Shown: in pieces, positions 7,096 to 55,076 of the stretch | Numbering within the stretch: the first letter of the stretch is position 1 | Layout: each line of letters begins with the position of its first letter | Assembly (NCBI GenBank): GCA_963825525.1 | Contig: CAWGTN010000002.1 | Location: 96,001-160,000, forward strand | Direction of reading: 5' to 3' | Source of the DNA: an uncultured Chloroflexia bacterium | Lineage (GTDB): Bacteria > Chloroflexota > Limnocylindria > QHBO01 | DNA length: 64,000 bases | Notes under the pieces: generated by a model | The model's input: only the letters and a program-made list of their open reading frames with translations | Databases searched by the model: none | Told to the model about the DNA's origin: nothing | Position numbers and translations under genes: made by a program

Positions 7096-7165
7096 GGATA
7101 TGACCCTAGCGTGATCGGTGCCACGGTGCACCCCGGCCAGGATCGGGAATCGGTGGTCGGGTGGA

Positions 7166-7283
7166 CAACTGCTCTCCTGGTTCGCATTAGCGGGCCGCAA
7201 GGGCCGATTCAGCTGGATGTCACGCTCAGAACACGGCCGGAGGCGCCCGCTGGGCCGGCTAACGCGAACCAGGCGAGCGGTTG
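7166..7283. repeat. 118-bp long-palindrome element (family C)
   Basis: 31-nt arms CAACTGCTCTCCTGGTTCGCATTAGCGGGCC and GGCCGGCTAACGCGAACCAGGCGAGCGGTTG are reverse-complementary at 27/31 positions; intergenic. Confidence 0.8.
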
Positions 7284-7348
7284 GCAGGACGGGAGTCGCC
7301 GCGTCTCGCAAGCCGGGAGTGCCGCTCGTCACCGGCGGCGGGAGGCCG

Positions 7349-7720
7349 CTACTCGGTCTGAATCAGCGAGAGGATGTTGCCGGCCGGGTCCTTGAACCAG
7401 GCGATGGGCGGGCCGTACTCGCGCGCAATGCCTCGCTCGTCCTGGCCGGCGCCGTCGTATTGCTCGAAGGTGACGCCGCGGCCGGCCAGGTCATCGACGG
7501 CCTCATCGATGTCCGGGACTTCGAAATTCAGGACGGTGAATGTTGCCGGCGCGTGGTCATCCTTCGGGTAGACGATGACTCGCTGGCCACCGGCGAGGTC
7601 GAGGTTGAGCATGCCCATCTCCTCGCTGACGGTGAGCCCGAGCGTCTCGGCATAGAAGGCCTTCGCCTTGGCGATGTCGTCCGCCGAGAATCCCGAAAAC
7701 GCCGTTCGCTGCTTCAACAT
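7349..7720 (-). CDS. VOC/glyoxalase family protein
   Basis: [17 protein letters not shown]...[14 protein letters not shown]...[14 protein letters not shown]; GAGGAG RBS. Confidence 0.92.
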
Positions 7721-7843
7721 GGATGGTCTCCTCTCGATGGTATGACCGATCGCGACCCCGATTCTGATCGGTCGAAGCTCACCGCGGGTTGCGGTTGAGA
7801 TCTCTGTGCGATGGAGGCCGACCCACGTGGCAGGCGAGTTCCT

Positions 7844-7975
7844 GCCAGATTCAGATGGGGTGCGCGCGGATCGGGCCAATCGGGCTGCTTTTCGCCAGGG
7901 TGCGGCTCCCAGCCTGCAGGTGACCGACATTGACTATCGGCAGCCGCATCCGTGCGTCTGTCGCATGAATGTGGC
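7844..7975. repeat. 132-bp long-palindrome element (family A), solo copy
   Basis: Ends GCCAGATTCA...TGAATGTGGC with central CCTGCAGG; motif spacing 59/45 nt versus 58/45 nt in the copies at 53406 and 53586. Confidence 0.75.
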
Positions 7976-7983
7976 GAAGAATG

Positions 7984-10452: not shown

Positions 10453-11165
10453 GACGAAGCGGCGTCCCTCGCAACGTTGCCGATGATCTCGGCCAGCTCG
10501 CGCGGCTTCGACCACATCGGCCAATGGCTGGTCGGCAGGTCGATCCAGGTCACGTTGCGCAGCTCGGGGATGCCGGCCAGGAAGGCCCAGTCGGGGTTCT
10601 CGCTGGCGTACGTCTGGTACTGCTCGGCGGTGAATCCGGTGCAGATCATCGTGCTGGGGATGTCCCGCCGCGCGTCGTTGGTGAGCTCGGCACCCTCGCG
10701 CATCATCGCGCCCGGCTCGGGGACTGCTCGCTCGCGGAACGTCGCTTTCTGCTCATCGCTGAGCCCATCGAGGTTCTCGCCCTCTTCGATCTCGGACCAG
10801 ACCATCGGCTTCTCCGCGTTGGCGAATTCGGGATCCAGCGCGCCCTTGCCTGGAGCGGTGTCCACGTAGACCATGGCCGCGATCCGCTCGGGGATGCGGT
10901 CGCTGGCCGCGTAGCCGCTGAACCCTGCCGCGCTGTGCAGAACGAGGACCGAGGGGGAGTCCTTGCTCTCGAGGGCGTCACAGATGGCGTCGACGTGGTC
11001 GGCAAACGTGACGCTCGAGCGATCCGCGTCGGCGGATTCGAGGCCGGGAAGCGTCAGCGCGGTGACGTCGTGGCCATCGCCGCGGAGCGCATCGGCGACT
11101 TCGTCCCATGCCCAGGCGCCGAGCCAGAATCCGGGAACCAGAATGATCGGTGCGGTCGTAGCCAT
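10449..11165 (-). CDS. alpha/beta hydrolase (Abhydrolase_6)
   Basis: LVPGFWLGAWAW, VLHSAAG and LPTSHWPMWSKP. Confidence 0.9.
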   Translation of the reverse strand: MATTAPIILVPGFWLGAWAWDEVADALRGDGHDVTALTLPGLESADADRSSVTFADHVDAICDALESKDSPSVLVLHSAAGFSGYAASDRIPERIAAMVYVDTAPGKGALDPEFANAEKPMVWSEIEEGENLDGLSDEQKATFRERAVPEPGAMMREGAELTNDARRDIPSTMICTGFTAEQYQTYASENPDWAFLAGIPELRNVTWIDLPTSHWPMWSKPRELAEIIGNVARDAASS

Positions 11166-49469: not shown

Positions 49470-50324
49470 CTAGCGGTCGAGGAAGCGGCGCAGGAAGTGG
49501 GTTGTCGCCTCGTGGCGCGGGTCGTTGAGCACCTGCTCGGGCGGTCCCTGCTCGATCACCGCGCCATCCTCCATGAACACCACCCGGTCGGCCGCCTCCT
49601 GCGCGAAGTGCATCTCGTGCGTGACCACGATCATCGTCGTGCCGCTGTGCGCCAGGTCCTCCATGACGCCCAGCACCTCGCCGATGAGCTCCGGGTCGAG
49701 CGCCGAGGTGGGCTCGTCGAACAGCAGCACCTTGGGTTCCATGCACAGTGCGCGGGCGATCGCGACGCGCTGCTTCTGGCCACCGGACAGGCGCGACGGG
49801 TACTCATCGCGCTTCTCCGCGAGGCCGACGACCTCGAGGTAGTACTCGGCCCGCGTGACGGCGTGGTCCTGCGAGTGTCCAAGCACACGCGTTGGCGCCT
49901 CGATGCAGTTGCCGAGCACGCTCAGGTGCGGGAAGAGGTTGAACTCCTGGAACAGCATTCCTGCGCGCAGCCGAATCTGCCGAATCTGCTCTCGATGCTG
50001 CCGATCCCGCGCGCGCAGCGGATCGGCTTCGACGCGAACCCCGTCGACCTCGATCGATCCGATCGTCGGCTCCTCGAGGAAGTTGATGCAGCGCAGGAGC
50101 GTCGTCTTGCCCGAGCCTGAGCGGCCGATGACCATCACCGCCTCGCGCTGCCGCACCTCGAGGTCGACGCCGCGAAGGACGTGGTTGTCGCCGAAGTACT
50201 TGTGAATGCCCTCGACCTTCACGATCGGCTCGCCGATGTGTGAGGGAAGCTTCGAATCGACCTCGTACCCACTGGTCGCGGTCGCCGAGCGCGGGCCGAG
50301 GTCAGGGAGAGGTGAGTCGGTCAT
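49470..50324 (-). CDS. polar amino-acid ABC transporter ATP-binding protein (GlnQ-like)
   Basis: GRSGSGKT, LSGGQKQRVAIARAL, FDEPTSALDPEL, VTHEM. Confidence 0.95.
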   Translation of the reverse strand: MTDSPLPDLGPRSATATSGYEVDSKLPSHIGEPIVKVEGIHKYFGDNHVLRGVDLEVRQREAVMVIGRSGSGKTTLLRCINFLEEPTIGSIEVDGVRVEADPLRARDRQHREQIRQIRLRAGMLFQEFNLFPHLSVLGNCIEAPTRVLGHSQDHAVTRAEYYLEVVGLAEKRDEYPSRLSGGQKQRVAIARALCMEPKVLLFDEPTSALDPELIGEVLGVMEDLAHSGTTMIVVTHEMHFAQEAADRVVFMEDGAVIEQGPPEQVLNDPRHEATTHFLRRFLDR

Positions 50325-51155
50325 CGGTCTCCACGCGCCATCCGGCGCTCGAGGCGATCCTGGAAGAAGCTGAAGATGATCGTCAGGCCCCAGTACATGA
50401 CTGCGGCGATCAGCAATGCCTGCAGGGTCTTGAAGTCCTGCGTGCCGACCGTGCGGGCACGCCACAGCAGCTCCTGCACGGCGATGGTGGAGACAAGAGC
50501 GCGAGTCCTTGATCATGGCGATGAAGTCATTTCCCACGGCCGGGATCACGATCCGGAATGCCTGTGGCAGCACGATCCGTCGGAACACGAGCCGTTCCGG
50601 CATGCCGAGCGCCTCAGCCGCCTCTCGTTGGCCGGGCGGCACCGCCTGGATGCCGGCGCGGAAGATCTCGGTCATGTACGCGCCGTAGTTCAGGCTCAGC
50701 GCGAGGATGCCGGCGGGGATGGAGGGAATCGTGACGCCGACCTGGGGCAGGGCGAAGTAGATGAAGAAGATCTGGACCAGGAGCGGCGTGCCGCGAAACA
50801 GCGAGACGTACAGCGATGCCACGCCGTTCGGGATTGGGTTGCTGGAGAGCCGGGAGAGCGCTCCGAGCACGGCCAGGATCGACGCGAAGATGATCGAGGA
50901 CAGGCAGACCACGAGGGTGATCCAGGTCCCGCCCAGGATGTAGGGACCCCATTGGGTCCACCAGGAAGTGTCGATGTTGTCGGTCACCCACAGCGCGTAG
51001 ACGAAGGCGCCGACGATGACGACCCAGGTGGCGATGAAGAGCAGCCTGAACGACAGCCGCTGCTTTCGATGCGCGGCATCGATCTGGTCCAGGATCTGCG
51101 CGCGGTCCTGGGTCCGCGCCTTGGTGGCCATGTGCGTCGTGGACGCCTCCGTCAA
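50321..51155 (-). CDS. polar amino-acid ABC transporter permease, apparent frameshift near 50500 fusing it to the ATPase ORF
   Basis: FRGTPLLVQ, EIFRAGI, GQREAAEALG, LPQA; the corrected tail ALVSTIAVQELL...RLERRMARGDR* ends at 50321. Confidence 0.9.
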
Positions 51156-52258: not shown

Positions 52259-53365
52259 ATGACCACCATCCAGCGGCCGAGCGCGCCTCCGTTGAGCCGG
52301 GCAGCGACGCTTCCGTCGCGCTATTACCTCGACGCCGACATCCTCGAGCGCGAGAAGGAGCTGGTGTTCGGCCGGACGTGGCAGCTGGTCGGGCGGGCGG
52401 ACCAGCTTCAGCGCATCGGCGACTTCATCCCGGTCACGGTGCTCGATGAACCGATCGTCATCACCCACGGGTTGGACGGAGAGCTCAAGGCCTTCTACAA
52501 CGTGTGCCGGCATCGGGCGGGTCAGGTGGCGCTCACCAAGGGCAATCGGAAGTCGCTCCAGTGCCGATATCACGGCTGGACGTACGGTTTGGATGGATGT
52601 CTGCGCGCCGCCCCGGAGATGGAGGCCACCGAGGGCTTCGCCAAGGAGGACTTCGGGCTCATCCCGGTCCGATGTGAGCGCTGGGGTCCCTTCGTGTTCG
52701 TGAATCTGAGCGATGACGCCCCGCCGCTGAGCGAGATGATGGGGAACATTCCGGGCGAGGTGGCCAGCGCCGGCTATGACGTGGACTCGATGCGACTGGT
52801 CGAGCGTCGCGACTACGTCATCGAGTGCAACTGGAAGGTCTACGTCGACAACTACCTCGAGGGCTATCACCTGCCGATCGCGCACCCGCAGCTCTTCAAG
52901 GAGCTCGACTACGACTCCTACCGCGTCGAGGAGTTCCGCTACTACAGCAAGCAGCACGCGCCGATCCGGGAGCTCAAGCCGGGGGAGGAGCTGGGCGTCG
53001 ACCGTCGCTATCTGCGGCAGCCGGGGGCCGAGGACAACGCGCTGTACTACTGGCTCTTCCCGAACACGATGTTCAACATCTACCAGGACAACATGTCGTC
53101 CAACGTGATCCTGCCGCTCGGGCCAGACCGAACGCTCACGATCTTCGAGTGGTTCTTCGCCGATCCGGGCTCGGGTCCCGGCTGGGAGTCGATGCAGCAG
53201 ACCATCGCCTTCAGTGACGAGATCCAGCAGGAGGACATCGTCATCTGCGAGCAGGTCCAGCGCGGCCTCCGCTCCCGCGCCTACGACACCGGTCGCTTCT
53301 CCGCCAAGCGCGAGAACGGCGTGTACCACTTCCAGAACCTCGTCCGCGAGTTCCTCGGGGAGTAG
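52259..53365 (+). CDS. Rieske non-heme iron oxygenase alpha subunit (choline monooxygenase-like)
   Basis: NVCRHRA...CRYHGWTY Rieske motif; NWKVYVDNYLEGYHLPIAHP; EDIVICEQVQRG. Confidence 0.93.
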   Translation: MTTIQRPSAPPLSRAATLPSRYYLDADILEREKELVFGRTWQLVGRADQLQRIGDFIPVTVLDEPIVITHGLDGELKAFYNVCRHRAGQVALTKGNRKSLQCRYHGWTYGLDGCLRAAPEMEATEGFAKEDFGLIPVRCERWGPFVFVNLSDDAPPLSEMMGNIPGEVASAGYDVDSMRLVERRDYVIECNWKVYVDNYLEGYHLPIAHPQLFKELDYDSYRVEEFRYYSKQHAPIRELKPGEELGVDRRYLRQPGAEDNALYYWLFPNTMFNIYQDNMSSNVILPLGPDRTLTIFEWFFADPGSGPGWESMQQTIAFSDEIQQEDIVICEQVQRGLRSRAYDTGRFSAKRENGVYHFQNLVREFLGE

Positions 53366-53383
53366 TCGGCCCTCGCGCGGCGT

Positions 53384-53750
53384 CCGGCCATCGGCCCTGA
53401 TCTTCGCCAGATTCATGCGGCATGCGCACCCGCGGCCGAATCGCGCCCAGTTTCGGCCACCTGCGGCGCTCAACCTGCAGGACGGCGATGAATCGCGTCA
53501 GTCGGCCGTTTCGTGCGCACCTGACGTGAATCTGGCAACGATTGGAACCACAACAGTCGTGGTGCCGGCCGTCGGCCCTGTCTTCGCCAGATTCATGCGG
53601 CATGCGCACCCGCGGCCGAATCGCGCCCAGTTTCGGCCACCTGCGGCGCTCAACCTGCAGGACGGCGATGAATCGCGTCGGTTGGCCGTTTCGTGCGCAC
53701 CTGACGTGAATCTGGCAACGATTGGAACCACAACAGTCGTGGTGCCGGCC
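53384..53750. repeat. two tandem ~180-bp units, each containing a 131-bp family A palindrome
   Basis: 53401-53570 and 53581-53750 are identical except for 2 substitutions; each contains GCCAGATTCA..TGCGCAC...CCTGCAGG...GTGCGCA..TGAATCTGGC. Confidence 0.95.
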
Positions 53751-54372
53751 CATTCGGTGCCCGCAGCCACCGCCGTGCCGAGGCTCCGCGCAACGCGTAC
53801 CCGTCGAAGAGCGCGGCGTGCCCCGCCACGTGGCGGCGCGTCGTCCTGTGCTCTGCGAACACGAGCGCGCGGCCCACGATTCGAGGAATCGGCCAGCCAA
53901 GCTGCTCTGCCAACATCGGCCCGAGCCGCGCTTTCGTATCCAGTCGCCGCAGGGTGTCCTGCACGTCCCCGAGCCGGCTCTTGACCTCAACCACGAGCAG
54001 GGCCTGTGCATCGGGGCGCCAGGCTAGAAGGTCGCAGCTCCCTCGATCGCCGAAGTGATTGAAGCTCACCTCGGGCTGCACGAGCCACCCAAACTTTGCC
54101 AGCCTGGCTGCCGTCTGATCCTGGACGGCGGCATGGAGCCGATCGACCAGCCGATCGAGATCCGCTCCGCGCCACCGCACCTCGACCAGCAGTTGGGCGT
54201 CGAGTGCAGCCACCAGTCGGTCCAGCGTTGCAAGCGTCACCGTGTCGAGCACTCCGCGCTCCACCCGGGATACGGCATCACGCGACAGGCCGGCTCGCGT
54301 GCCCAGGTCAACCTGGCGCCATCCCAGGCGAGCGCGCAGCCCCCGCATCGCGCGCGGCACGTTCGTTCGCAT
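53650..54372 (-). CDS. XRE-type HTH + PD-(D/E)XK (restriction-endonuclease-like) domain protein
   Basis: LRARLGWRQVDLGTRAGLSRDAVSRVERG (HTH); PEVSFNHFGDRGSCDLLAW...LVVEVKS (E..D..ExK). Confidence 0.85.
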   Translation of the reverse strand: MRTNVPRAMRGLRARLGWRQVDLGTRAGLSRDAVSRVERGVLDTVTLATLDRLVAALDAQLLVEVRWRGADLDRLVDRLHAAVQDQTAARLAKFGWLVQPEVSFNHFGDRGSCDLLAWRPDAQALLVVEVKSRLGDVQDTLRRLDTKARLGPMLAEQLGWPIPRIVGRALVFAEHRTTRRHVAGHAALFDGYALRGASARRWLRAPNGPAPRLLWFQSLPDSRQVRTKRPTDAIHRRPAG

Positions 54373-54422
54373 GGCGACGCCGATGATGCGCATAGGGCGA
54401 TTACCCAGCCATTACGACGGCC

Positions 54423-55076
54423 TTATCGGGCGCGACCGTCCAGGTAGGCGATGACCGCCAGGACGCGGCGGTTGTCATCGGGATGCTCTTCCAGGCCGAG
54501 CTTCGAGAAGATCGTCGCCACCTGGCCCTCGACCGTCTTGACCGAGATGGACAGCCGATCCGCGACCGAGCGGTTGGAGCGGCCCTCGGCGACGAGCGCC
54601 ATGACGTCGCGCTCCCGGGGCGTGAGGACGGAGAGCCGTTCCTGGGTCGCACGGCCCCGCACGATCTCGTCCACCACCGACGGGTCGATCGCCGATCCGC
54701 CGCTCGCCACTCGCTCGGCCGATGCCAGGAGCTCGGCCGCATCCGCCACGCGGTCCTTGAGCAGGTAGCCGACCCCGCCAGCCCCTCCCTGCAGCAGCAT
54801 GAGCGCGTACTCCGGCTCGAGAAACTGCGAGAGCACGAGGACCCCGACGGCTCCGCCATGCTCCTTGCGAATCCGGACCGCTGCGTTGAGCCCGGCCGTG
54901 TCGGATGGCGGCATCCGGATGTCGATAACGGCGAGGTCCGGCCGCAGCTCATCGACGAGCGCCAGGAGCTCGTCGCCGGTGCGGGCCTGCCCGACGATGG
55001 TCGCGCCGCCGGCGGTGAGGATGCGGACGACCCCTTCGCGGATGACCGCCGAGTCATCGGCCACGATCACTCGCAT
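54423..55076 (-). CDS. NarL/LuxR family response regulator
   Basis: VIVADD, DIRMPP, YLLKD, LTPRERDVMALVAEGRSN. Confidence 0.95.
   Translation of the reverse strand: MRVIVADDSAVIREGVVRILTAGGATIVGQARTGDELLALVDELRPDLAVIDIRMPPSDTAGLNAAVRIRKEHGGAVGVLVLSQFLEPEYALMLLQGGAGGVGYLLKDRVADAAELLASAERVASGGSAIDPSVVDEIVRGRATQERLSVLTPRERDVMALVAEGRSNRSVADRLSISVKTVEGQVATIFSKLGLEEHPDDNRRVLAVIAYLDGRAR

Follow-up and report, generated by a model that had tools for sequence, protein, structure and literature searches.

Can a restriction-type nuclease keep a family of palindromic repeats of its own? The question is raised by one gene in a 64,000-nucleotide (nt) stretch of the genome of an uncultured Limnocylindria bacterium (Chloroflexota), positions 96,001 to 160,000 of contig CAWGTN010000002.1, which we refer to as the window. 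The gene encodes an XRE-type helix-turn-helix (HTH) joined to a PD-(D/E)XK nuclease domain, and its 3′ end is built into a long palindrome that also occurs elsewhere in the window. Repetitive extragenic palindromic (REP) sequences and REP doublets forming hairpins (REPINs) are the textbook example of short mobile hairpins that a domesticated enzyme maintains. To our knowledge, every known case of these uses an HUH transposase, the REP-associated tyrosine transposase (RAYT). An earlier note on the window had proposed that this nuclease and its palindrome are linked in a RAYT/REP-like arrangement. We found that gene and palindrome are a conserved pair in related genomes, and we tentatively read them as a RAYT/REPIN-like partnership with a non-HUH enzyme and a low copy number, a reading that we hold with somewhat less than even confidence.

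The longest open reading frame (ORF) of the gene encodes 247 amino acids (aa), but its true start is likely the second ATG, at 54372, which gives a protein of 240 aa, because most homologues have about 240 aa and the aligned ones open with MRTNVP. In the numbering of the longer ORF, the HTH spans residues ~12-67, the PD-(D/E)XK domain ~78-224 and a disordered basic tail 225-247. Two Pfam HTH models pass their cut-offs at residues 16-67 (HTH_31, 33.5 bits for a cut-off of 27; HTH_3, 30.4 bits for a cut-off of 23). No Pfam model covers the nuclease domain of this family, where the only matches are weak ones to UPF0102/YraN and VRR_NUC, both of them PD-(D/E)XK families. D121, E136 and K138 are invariant among 115 aligned homologues and correspond to the catalytic D...(D/E)-x-K pattern; the nuclease is therefore probably active. 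An AlphaFold2 model based on the same number of homologues has a mean pLDDT (predicted local distance difference test) of 88.3, with the tail below 50, and the fold closes at the LLWF strand (residues 219-224). The Foldseek matches of this model are SduA of Shedu (E = 1.7e-4), the R2 endonuclease domain (3e-4) and PfoI (9e-4), and further matches of the C-terminal domain include Upx, AF1548 and EndoMS, all of them restriction-type nucleases. The TM-scores are low (0.2-0.35) because a single domain was matched.

Both hallmarks of the PD-(D/E)XK superfamily are thus present, the restriction-endonuclease-like core in the model and the D..ExK residues in the alignment, and the identity given in the earlier note for both domains is borne out. 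So is its statement that the enzyme is not of the HUH type: no HUH (Y1) transposase signature was detected in the protein, as HTH families alone exceeded the Pfam cut-offs and Foldseek returned restriction-type nucleases. Neighbours of the protein in the ESM Atlas are annotated only as “hypothetical protein.” Homologues of 319-499 aa carry no extra Pfam domain, and such fusions hint at no function. The C-terminal tail of the homologues is kept as LLWF..LPDS...R.....RVR..R.AG-stop. In this tail, (L)PDS is encoded by the palindrome end motif GCCAGATTCA, and P-A-G-stop by CCTGCAGG followed by TGA.

The stop codon of the nuclease gene (53652-53650) lies exactly at the centre (53651) of the palindrome that we refer to as B (Table 1). 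The earlier note had counted about 30 codons of the gene tail in this palindrome; the overlap, stop included, was correct, but only the last 22 codons form the arm, and the last 31 are those included, together with the hairpin, in a tandem unit. Each unit of this duplication consists of a 49-nt stretch (codons for ..GPAPRLLWFQSL plus spacer) and a 131-nt palindrome. The duplication itself was confirmed in the assembly. The two substitutions that had been reported between 180-bp units hold for palindromes A and B (53500/53680 and 53503/53683), whereas an alignment of the whole units shows three substitutions and a 1-nt indel. On reading the sequence, we noted a short microhomology, GGCCGG, at the junction. 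Both differences between the palindromes fall at third positions and are synonymous in the frame of the tail (CCA/CCG, Pro; ACC/ACT, Thr), which with two cases may be chance.

The palindromes are imperfect, with outer 30-nt arms that are 73% complementary. As RNA, they stand out from shuffled sequence: the fold is at -74.1 kcal/mol for the plus strand (z = -4.8) and -76.4 kcal/mol for the minus strand (z = -4.9), and none of 200 shuffles was as stable. No Rfam family matched at gathering thresholds across the window, and the best sub-threshold hits in 53300-53800 have E values of at least 2.5. We considered an integron attC site and rejected it, given that there is no GTTRRRY-type core on reading the sequence, that the arm is conserved coding sequence and that the synteny is fixed.

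Table 1. Positions of the nuclease gene, its upstream repeats and the palindromes in the window (R1 and R2 are the covariance models described in the text)
Feature	Position	Strand	Remarks
XRE-type HTH + PD-(D/E)XK nuclease gene	53650-54393	minus	longest ORF, 247 aa, start 54393
Three direct repeats GATAAGG, GTAATGG, GGTAATCG	54398-54427	minus	TAA cores 11 nt apart
Palindrome B, 131 nt	53586-53716		coding arm on gene side, other arm non-coding
Palindrome A, 131 nt, tandem duplicate	53406-53536		in spacer ahead of convergent Rieske oxygenase gene (stop 53365)
Tandem duplication, units 181 + 180 nt	53384-53750		Tandem Repeats Finder: period 180, 2.0 copies, 97% matches (in assembly)
Solo palindrome, type of the gene's copy	7840-7979		R1 64.9 bits (plus, E = 5e-12), 58 (minus); not a seed
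Second solo palindrome, other type	7160-7289		R1 with filters off 20.9 bits, E = 0.0024; R2 33.3 bits, E = 3.4e-4

Is the palindrome a regular companion of the gene? We fetched 71 loci (numbered with the prefix L) via a protein search of genome contigs, nearly all of them from metagenome-assembled genomes (MAGs) labelled Limnocylindria, Chloroflexota or Chloroflexia. Several MAGs contribute two or three loci each; we located the stop codon in 68 of the 71. The data scanned for elements were the 64 kb of this genome and flanks of up to 10 kb per side of the other loci. Folding around the stops revealed that many loci share a coding arm, a stop near the apex and a non-coding arm, and that the arms differ between loci and remain complementary. 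We then used two covariance models. Model R1 was seeded with ten tail hairpins, one of which was palindrome B (124.7 bits, as a seed), and model R2 with a MAFFT alignment of 26 elements, whose structure was specified by hand. Across 1,011,107 nt, R2 gave 71 matches at E <= 0.05, representing 42 distinct elements, of which 26 are seeds of R2 that match by construction and 16 are new. By location, there are 26 stop-codon hairpins, two hairpins at the window gene, nine upstream copies and five remote elements.

Of the 68 loci whose stop was located, 26 have a hairpin recognised by R2 across the nuclease stop codon, as has the window; among the 23 loci with the same downstream synteny as the window, the figure is 20. 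The covariance search around homologous genes that the earlier note had suggested thus supports its claim of a nuclease-palindrome pair, and the pair is conserved. All 26 of these loci have the stop within the hairpin; it is no more than 8 nt from the centre in 16 of them, and in 8 of 18 once the stop-centred seeds are set aside. In nine loci (L002, L003, L004, L006, L008, L009, L017, L026 and L036) there is a second hairpin directly upstream of the gene and in the same orientation. Beyond its seeds, R1 recovered upstream copies in seven loci, the window solo at 7840-7979, two elements in L022 that are 8 kb from the gene, and one in L030. An nhmmer profile of the ~45-nt unit detected 49 units, 43 of them within ~1 kb of a family gene and six remote (L022, L030).

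Two more generic approaches were not relied upon. The number of pairs spanning the stop in predicted folds (medians of 27 in 67 family genes and 19 in 147 control ORFs; p = 0.0098, Mann-Whitney test) is barely discriminating in GC-rich DNA, and general scans for long palindromes (gapless, 0 vs 5 in a mirror control; gapped, 3 vs 10) are uninformative on abundance because both missed the window's own hairpins. About 9 kb upstream of the gene in L001 (770-1247), two 244-nt units with 85% similarity stand in tandem, each with a long hairpin whose arms have a GGCAGATTCG / CGAATTCGCC core resembling the end motif of the family. Related repeat types may be under-counted, because R1 and R2 both miss this pair.

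Long palindromes and repeats are error-prone in assembly, and the 931-kb contig of L001 ends (10657-10660) at nuclease residue 225, exactly where the hairpin should start. The contigs of L055 and L064 also terminate inside the nuclease gene, which suggests that the repeats of this family break assemblies. The tandem duplication, or even the whole feature, could on this basis be an assembly artefact or a chance palindrome. We consider this highly improbable, as independent assemblies from dozens of MAGs show the same architecture, the copies in the window differ by substitutions, other loci have tandem copies of their own and no shuffled sequence folds as well.

We evaluated whether the pairing of the arms is kept by selection. 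In the MAFFT alignment of 26 elements, 79.9% of cells pair, compared with 30.7-39.3% when the partners are slid by one to three columns. The covariation score of 0.303 (vs 0.152 in shuffles) was reached by 0 of 500 shuffles, and 16 of 25 pairs have double-sided changes; a model-fitted alignment gives a similar picture. G-T/T-G pairs account for 7% and A-C/C-A for 5%, and with such near-equal mismatches there is no sign of a single functional transcribed strand. This near-equality leans towards a palindrome that would act at the DNA level. The motifs at the base, middle and apex, including the apex with TGA, are also retained in the non-coding upstream and solo copies. Given this, and the disorder of the encoded tail in the structure model, the constraint is at least partly on the nucleic acid, and part of what looks like protein conservation in the tail is, to judge from these alignments, conservation of the repeat element. 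Homogenisation of upstream and downstream hairpins within loci was tested and set aside, the signal being weak (66-78% identity within a locus vs a between-lineage background of 58-71%). For two pairs of related loci, L003/L036 and L008/L009, the similarity between upstream copies and between downstream copies at least equals that within a locus, and thus upstream and downstream hairpins are old orthologous copies that were not recently converted.

These patterns bear on an explanation in which the nuclease is uninvolved. The hairpin could be a cis-acting expression element, either a bidirectional terminator or a 3′-end stabiliser between the convergent nuclease and Rieske genes, whose copies arise by replication slippage. 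Possibly it would couple translation to folding, with the ribosome melting one arm and stopping at the apex. The hairpin at the 3′ end of the gene, which fills the spacer between the convergent genes in 23 loci and the window, would suit this role, as would the stop codon at or near the apex, the junction microhomology of the kind that slippage uses, and the remote copies that sit in spacers between co-directional genes. REPs of E. coli are described as regulators in 3′ untranslated regions in the available part of a preprint (bioRxiv 10.64898/2026.03.23.713779). However, we detected no terminator-like site (GC-rich stem plus T run) and no sigma-70-like site on either strand of 53250-54550, and a plain terminator does not need the primary-sequence motifs that are conserved at the base, middle and apex. 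In the nine loci with an upstream copy, this copy lies ahead of the promoter-proximal repeats, from where it is unable to terminate or stabilise the gene's own mRNA. Selection on one RNA strand should also give an excess of G-U, but G-U (7%) is about as frequent as A-C (5%). Nor would slippage account for the ~470 nt inserted 8 kb away into a spacer of 6-12 nt. We regard this explanation, with or without the coupling to translation, as unlikely, though well worth keeping in view.

The gene keeps its position. Its downstream neighbour, a convergent gene for a Rieske-type oxygenase (80-93% aa identity), recurs in 23 loci and the window, usually with one and the same solute-binding-protein gene farther on. 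On the other side, the upstream translations indicate a divergent neighbour that is apparently common to many loci. In the window, the upstream neighbour, a LuxR-type response-regulator gene, is co-directional with the nuclease gene, and this response regulator and the histidine kinase that also lies upstream were found in none of the other fetched loci. The description of the gene as lying between convergent genes was therefore wrong, as only the downstream Rieske gene converges on it. The nuclease is 50-66% identical to its relatives with Rieske synteny, and its closest orthologue is that of L001 (79% identity). At E <= 0.001 we found 388 relatives in a word-indexed collection, the few named ones being Limnocylindria or Chloroflexi, and a library clustered at 50% identity yielded 689 clusters at E <= 1e-30. 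No protein match was found in 72,556 plasmid or 50,697 phage records. There are one to three nuclease loci per MAG; in L015, L036 and L057, a second homologue lies no more than 10 kb away. On this comparative evidence, the nuclease gene is vertically inherited in a fixed synteny and does not hop.

By contrast, the hairpins do multiply, but rarely. The clearest sign of movement, judged from an empty-site comparison as proposed in the earlier note, is in L022, where the polA-fpg spacer is ~470 nt long, compared with 6 nt in L012, 12 nt in each of L009 and L017, and ~35 nt in L016. The insertion (1955-2434) comprises two tandem hairpin units of ~205 nt each and lies 8 kb from the nuclease gene. 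The idea of a dispersed family was overstated, with 5 of 42 elements remote in ~1 Mb. At least this copy, set against four empty sites, is an insertion, which fits a RAYT/REP-like arrangement.

The solo palindrome at 7840-7979 of the window (7844-7975 in the earlier note) lies at a distance of 45 kb from the nuclease gene, in a 263-nt spacer that has an alpha/beta-hydrolase gene on one side and a glyoxalase-family gene on the other. Its recovery by R1, a model built without it, indicates that the reported solo is real. It is however degenerate, an old and decayed copy that is 71% identical to palindrome B, has no long exact word in common with it and folds no better than shuffles (z = -0.5). 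The second solo is in the next spacer, between two glyoxalase-family genes, and its DNA fold has z = -3.1. One of its arms is identical at 36 of 41 nt to the tail arm of L027, which together with L060 and L023 represents a paralogous nuclease subfamily with the tail ..LPNARVVRISGQ.., no gene of which is in the window. L060 and L001 are from the same MAG, and the genome of the window probably carries an L027-type paralogue elsewhere. Both solos are in a co-directional trio of alpha/beta-hydrolase, glyoxalase-family and glyoxalase-family genes, and the two repeat types flank the small glyoxalase-family gene at 7349-7720.

Could the extra hairpins simply be relics of nuclease-gene tails, left by duplication and subsequent deletion with no dedicated mobility? 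The tandem unit in the window carries the last 31 codons, the plus-strand reading of the solo at 7840-7979 resembles the tails of homologues, the upstream copies of L004 and L015 retain tail-like frames, and L015, L036 and L057 have their second homologues nearby. Such tail-like frames, however, follow automatically from nucleotide similarity to the coding arm. Searches with tblastn detected no HTH or nuclease-domain remnant beside the window solos or the L022 insertion, and with a spacer of 6-12 nt in relatives, a whole gene would have to enter the L022 site and then vanish. We give this explanation only a slim chance.

Repeats near the gene are not of one kind. Arrays repeating every ~50 nt adjoin genes of other subfamilies, in L012, L018, L019, L021, L024, L044, L054 (6.8 copies) and L058. 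Such arrays differ in sequence but are strikingly constant in period, and they begin at or near the stop of different paralogues or lie upstream (L054, 10737-11075; L053, 9664-9849; L058, 10733-10841). Counting all arrays whose period is 20 nt or more, we found 28 in the 58,650 nt near stops and 100 in the remaining 952,457 nt. L022 and L054, which are from one MAG, have unrelated repeats. As far as these loci allow a comparison, repeat types track nuclease paralogues.

The tandem arrays bring to mind type III toxin-antitoxin (TA) systems, whose layout places repeats upstream of a ToxN-type ribonuclease gene. If the nuclease were part of a TA or defence module, transcripts of the hairpin or of the ~50-nt repeats would neutralise or guide it, and the HTH would be a built-in autorepressor. 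The HTH is most similar to the HigA2 and HipB antitoxins and to restriction-modification controller proteins, and the nuclease fold is nearest to the defence nucleases SduA of Shedu and Upx. Direct tandem arrays do abut the genes, for example the 6.8 copies of 50 nt in L054, and resemble the tandem short repeats beside the nuclease gene of ToxIN. The protein also evolves fast, at 50-66% identity vs 80-93% for the neighbouring oxygenase. However, no PADLOC or Pfam model of a known defence or TA system was matched beyond the level of domains, and no such model pointed to a ToxN-type endoribonuclease with an upstream repeat array. Compared with ToxIN, the repeats here are downstream and overlap the gene, the enzyme has another fold, and there are inverted doublets and remote solos, for which this explanation has no role. 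Strict class-wide synteny and the lack of matches on plasmids and phages are unusual for defence islands or addiction modules, and the mismatches show no strand asymmetry. We consider a TA or defence module improbable.

The HTH may have a target closer at hand. Upstream of the gene, three direct repeats (Table 1) are located 25-55 nt from the likely start, and the first contains the TAA stop codon of the LuxR-type response-regulator gene. Between one and three heptamer repeats of this kind, G(G/A)TAAGC(G/C)-like or GGTAAGCG-like and with 11-nt spacing, precede the start in 64 of 70 loci. The motif has 130 matches there, 1.86 per 90 nt compared with a background of 0.034 (~55x). We infer that the three repeats are probably the promoter/operator of the nuclease gene and that the HTH autoregulates it. 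Binding of direct repeats by an HTH repressor is known for the C repressor of phage P2, where, in the available text of the source (PMC2995052), two or three direct repeats one helical turn (11 nt) apart lie at the promoter of its own HTH gene. The difference is that the HTH considered here is fused to a nuclease domain, and its binding to the repeats would be the counterpart of what P2 does. We also considered whether the HTH binds one motif in both the promoter repeats and the hairpin. TAAYGC occurs in the hairpins of many loci, yet there is no TAA in the window hairpin, and the idea was dropped. A conserved GATCATCGG-like stretch lies after the repeats, immediately ahead of the start, a hint that the leader is very short or absent.

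How does the module compare with known repeat systems? RAYT genes, in the available text of PMC5581495, have few copies, are vertically inherited and rare on plasmids, have cognate flanking repeats of a type specific to each paralogue, and have repeats in other spacers; these features are also drawn from the accessible portions of PMC3116915 and PMC3337134. The nuclease gene is likewise a resident enzyme gene in one to three loci per MAG, with preserved synteny and no plasmid or phage match. It is flanked by cognate palindromic repeats, on the 3′ side in 26 loci and the window and upstream in nine, and these repeats consist of two inverted units that form a long hairpin. There are several paralogues per genome with repeat types of their own, and repeats in other extragenic spacers. 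The differences are as clear. An HTH plus PD-(D/E)XK nuclease stands in the place of an HUH/Y1 transposase, one repeat unit is coding, with the stop codon at the hairpin apex, and the remote copies seen are few and diverged (5 in the ~1 Mb scanned), whereas 16-mers flanking RAYTs have on average 41 copies per replicon in the part of PMC5581495 that gives this figure. REPs have a conserved GTAG or CGTC tag at one end, as described in the available text of PMC3733652; no such tag is conserved at the hairpin ends in our element alignment, which are GCCAGATTCA-like and TGAATCTGGC-like. The module may well work like a RAYT/REPIN system yet is not a member of the RAYT/REPIN family. In a full-text search of one literature library, we found neither a report of REP-like repeats associated with an HTH or PD-(D/E)XK nuclease nor a description of palindromic repeats from Limnocylindria.

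As with the genes of IS200/IS605 elements, similar hairpins on one strand and in one orientation can lie on both sides of the nuclease gene, and for IS200/IS605 the available text of PMC6006769 indicates that folded DNA is relevant to recognition. The hairpins here are however ~135 nt long, against ~20-25 nt in that family; neither TnpA nor TnpB is present, the gene is fixed in synteny and only nine loci have an upstream copy. Correia/NEMIS elements are palindromic elements without a known transposase that resemble miniature inverted-repeat transposable elements (MITEs). They are intergenic, ~100-150 nt long, with inverted ends that form long hairpins, and can be inserted between genes. The elements described here differ in being tied, physically and evolutionarily, to one protein family and in their low copy number. 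As for MITEs in general, the elements have the inverted ends, we recognised no target-site duplication at the L022 site, and no parent element with a transposase was seen.

In combination, we propose that the locus is a vertically inherited gene-plus-palindrome module of Limnocylindria with a self-regulating XRE-HTH/PD-(D/E)XK nuclease. The 3′ end of the gene would be built into a cognate, imperfect palindrome of ~135 nt with the architecture of a REPIN, that is, two inverted ~45-nt units and a conserved apex. The nuclease may recognise its own palindrome type, probably on DNA, either as a folded single strand or as an extruded cruciform. Once cleaved, the palindrome would from time to time be multiplied through repair or copying; this would give rise to tandem copies next to the gene, to a second copy on its upstream side and, rarely, to insertions in intergenic spacers elsewhere. 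The HTH would probably repress its own gene via the three 11-nt-spaced GGTAAGCG-like repeats. The enzyme would thus be domesticated and single-copy, with satellite hairpins as in RAYT/REPIN systems, but a restriction-type nuclease and not an HUH tyrosine transposase.

Several observations weigh against this proposal. Enzyme and hairpin are linked here by co-location, and arm-to-arm gene conversion could sustain palindromy and apparent covariation without any protein. The remote elements found by R2 are only the two solos in the window, two in L022 and one in L030, and self-BLAST of gene-proximal regions against the rest of each locus gave six hits in five loci, one of which is a paralogous gene. 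The identity of just 71% between the window solo and the gene's copy is unlike the near-identical populations of active REPINs, and no target-site duplication is visible at the L022 insertion in comparison with the four empty sites. The models are tuned to one repeat type, and both counts and absences depend on them; the minimum-energy pair count hardly separates family genes from control ORFs (27 vs 19, p = 0.01). We also know of no PD-(D/E)XK enzyme that transposes DNA on its own.

A bolder version is that the module is a second, independent symbiosis of an enzyme and satellite hairpins. A PD-(D/E)XK nuclease specific for a site or a structure would both spread REPIN-like palindromes and keep them in check, cutting DNA that is folded or in cruciform shape; the stop at the apex would couple translation and folding, and paralogues would co-evolve with private repeats across the class. 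We find this version doubtful as a whole. If a restriction-type nuclease does keep its own palindromes, enzyme-repeat partnerships would have evolved more than once, and the module, with one small protein and one 135-nt DNA, would be a tractable system for asking what such repeats do. Whatever the mechanism, several features are of interest in this uncultured and poorly studied lineage: coding sequence that also serves as an arm of a hairpin, a stop at the apex, and a presumed promoter whose three repeats are one helical turn apart.

Apart from this module, we noted a 561-aa ORF on the minus strand of the window (49470-51155), in which an N-terminal part like an ABC-transporter permease appears to be joined via a low-complexity stretch to an ATP-binding C-terminal part. 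This ORF could be a fusion, a frameshift or a wrong-frame read-through.

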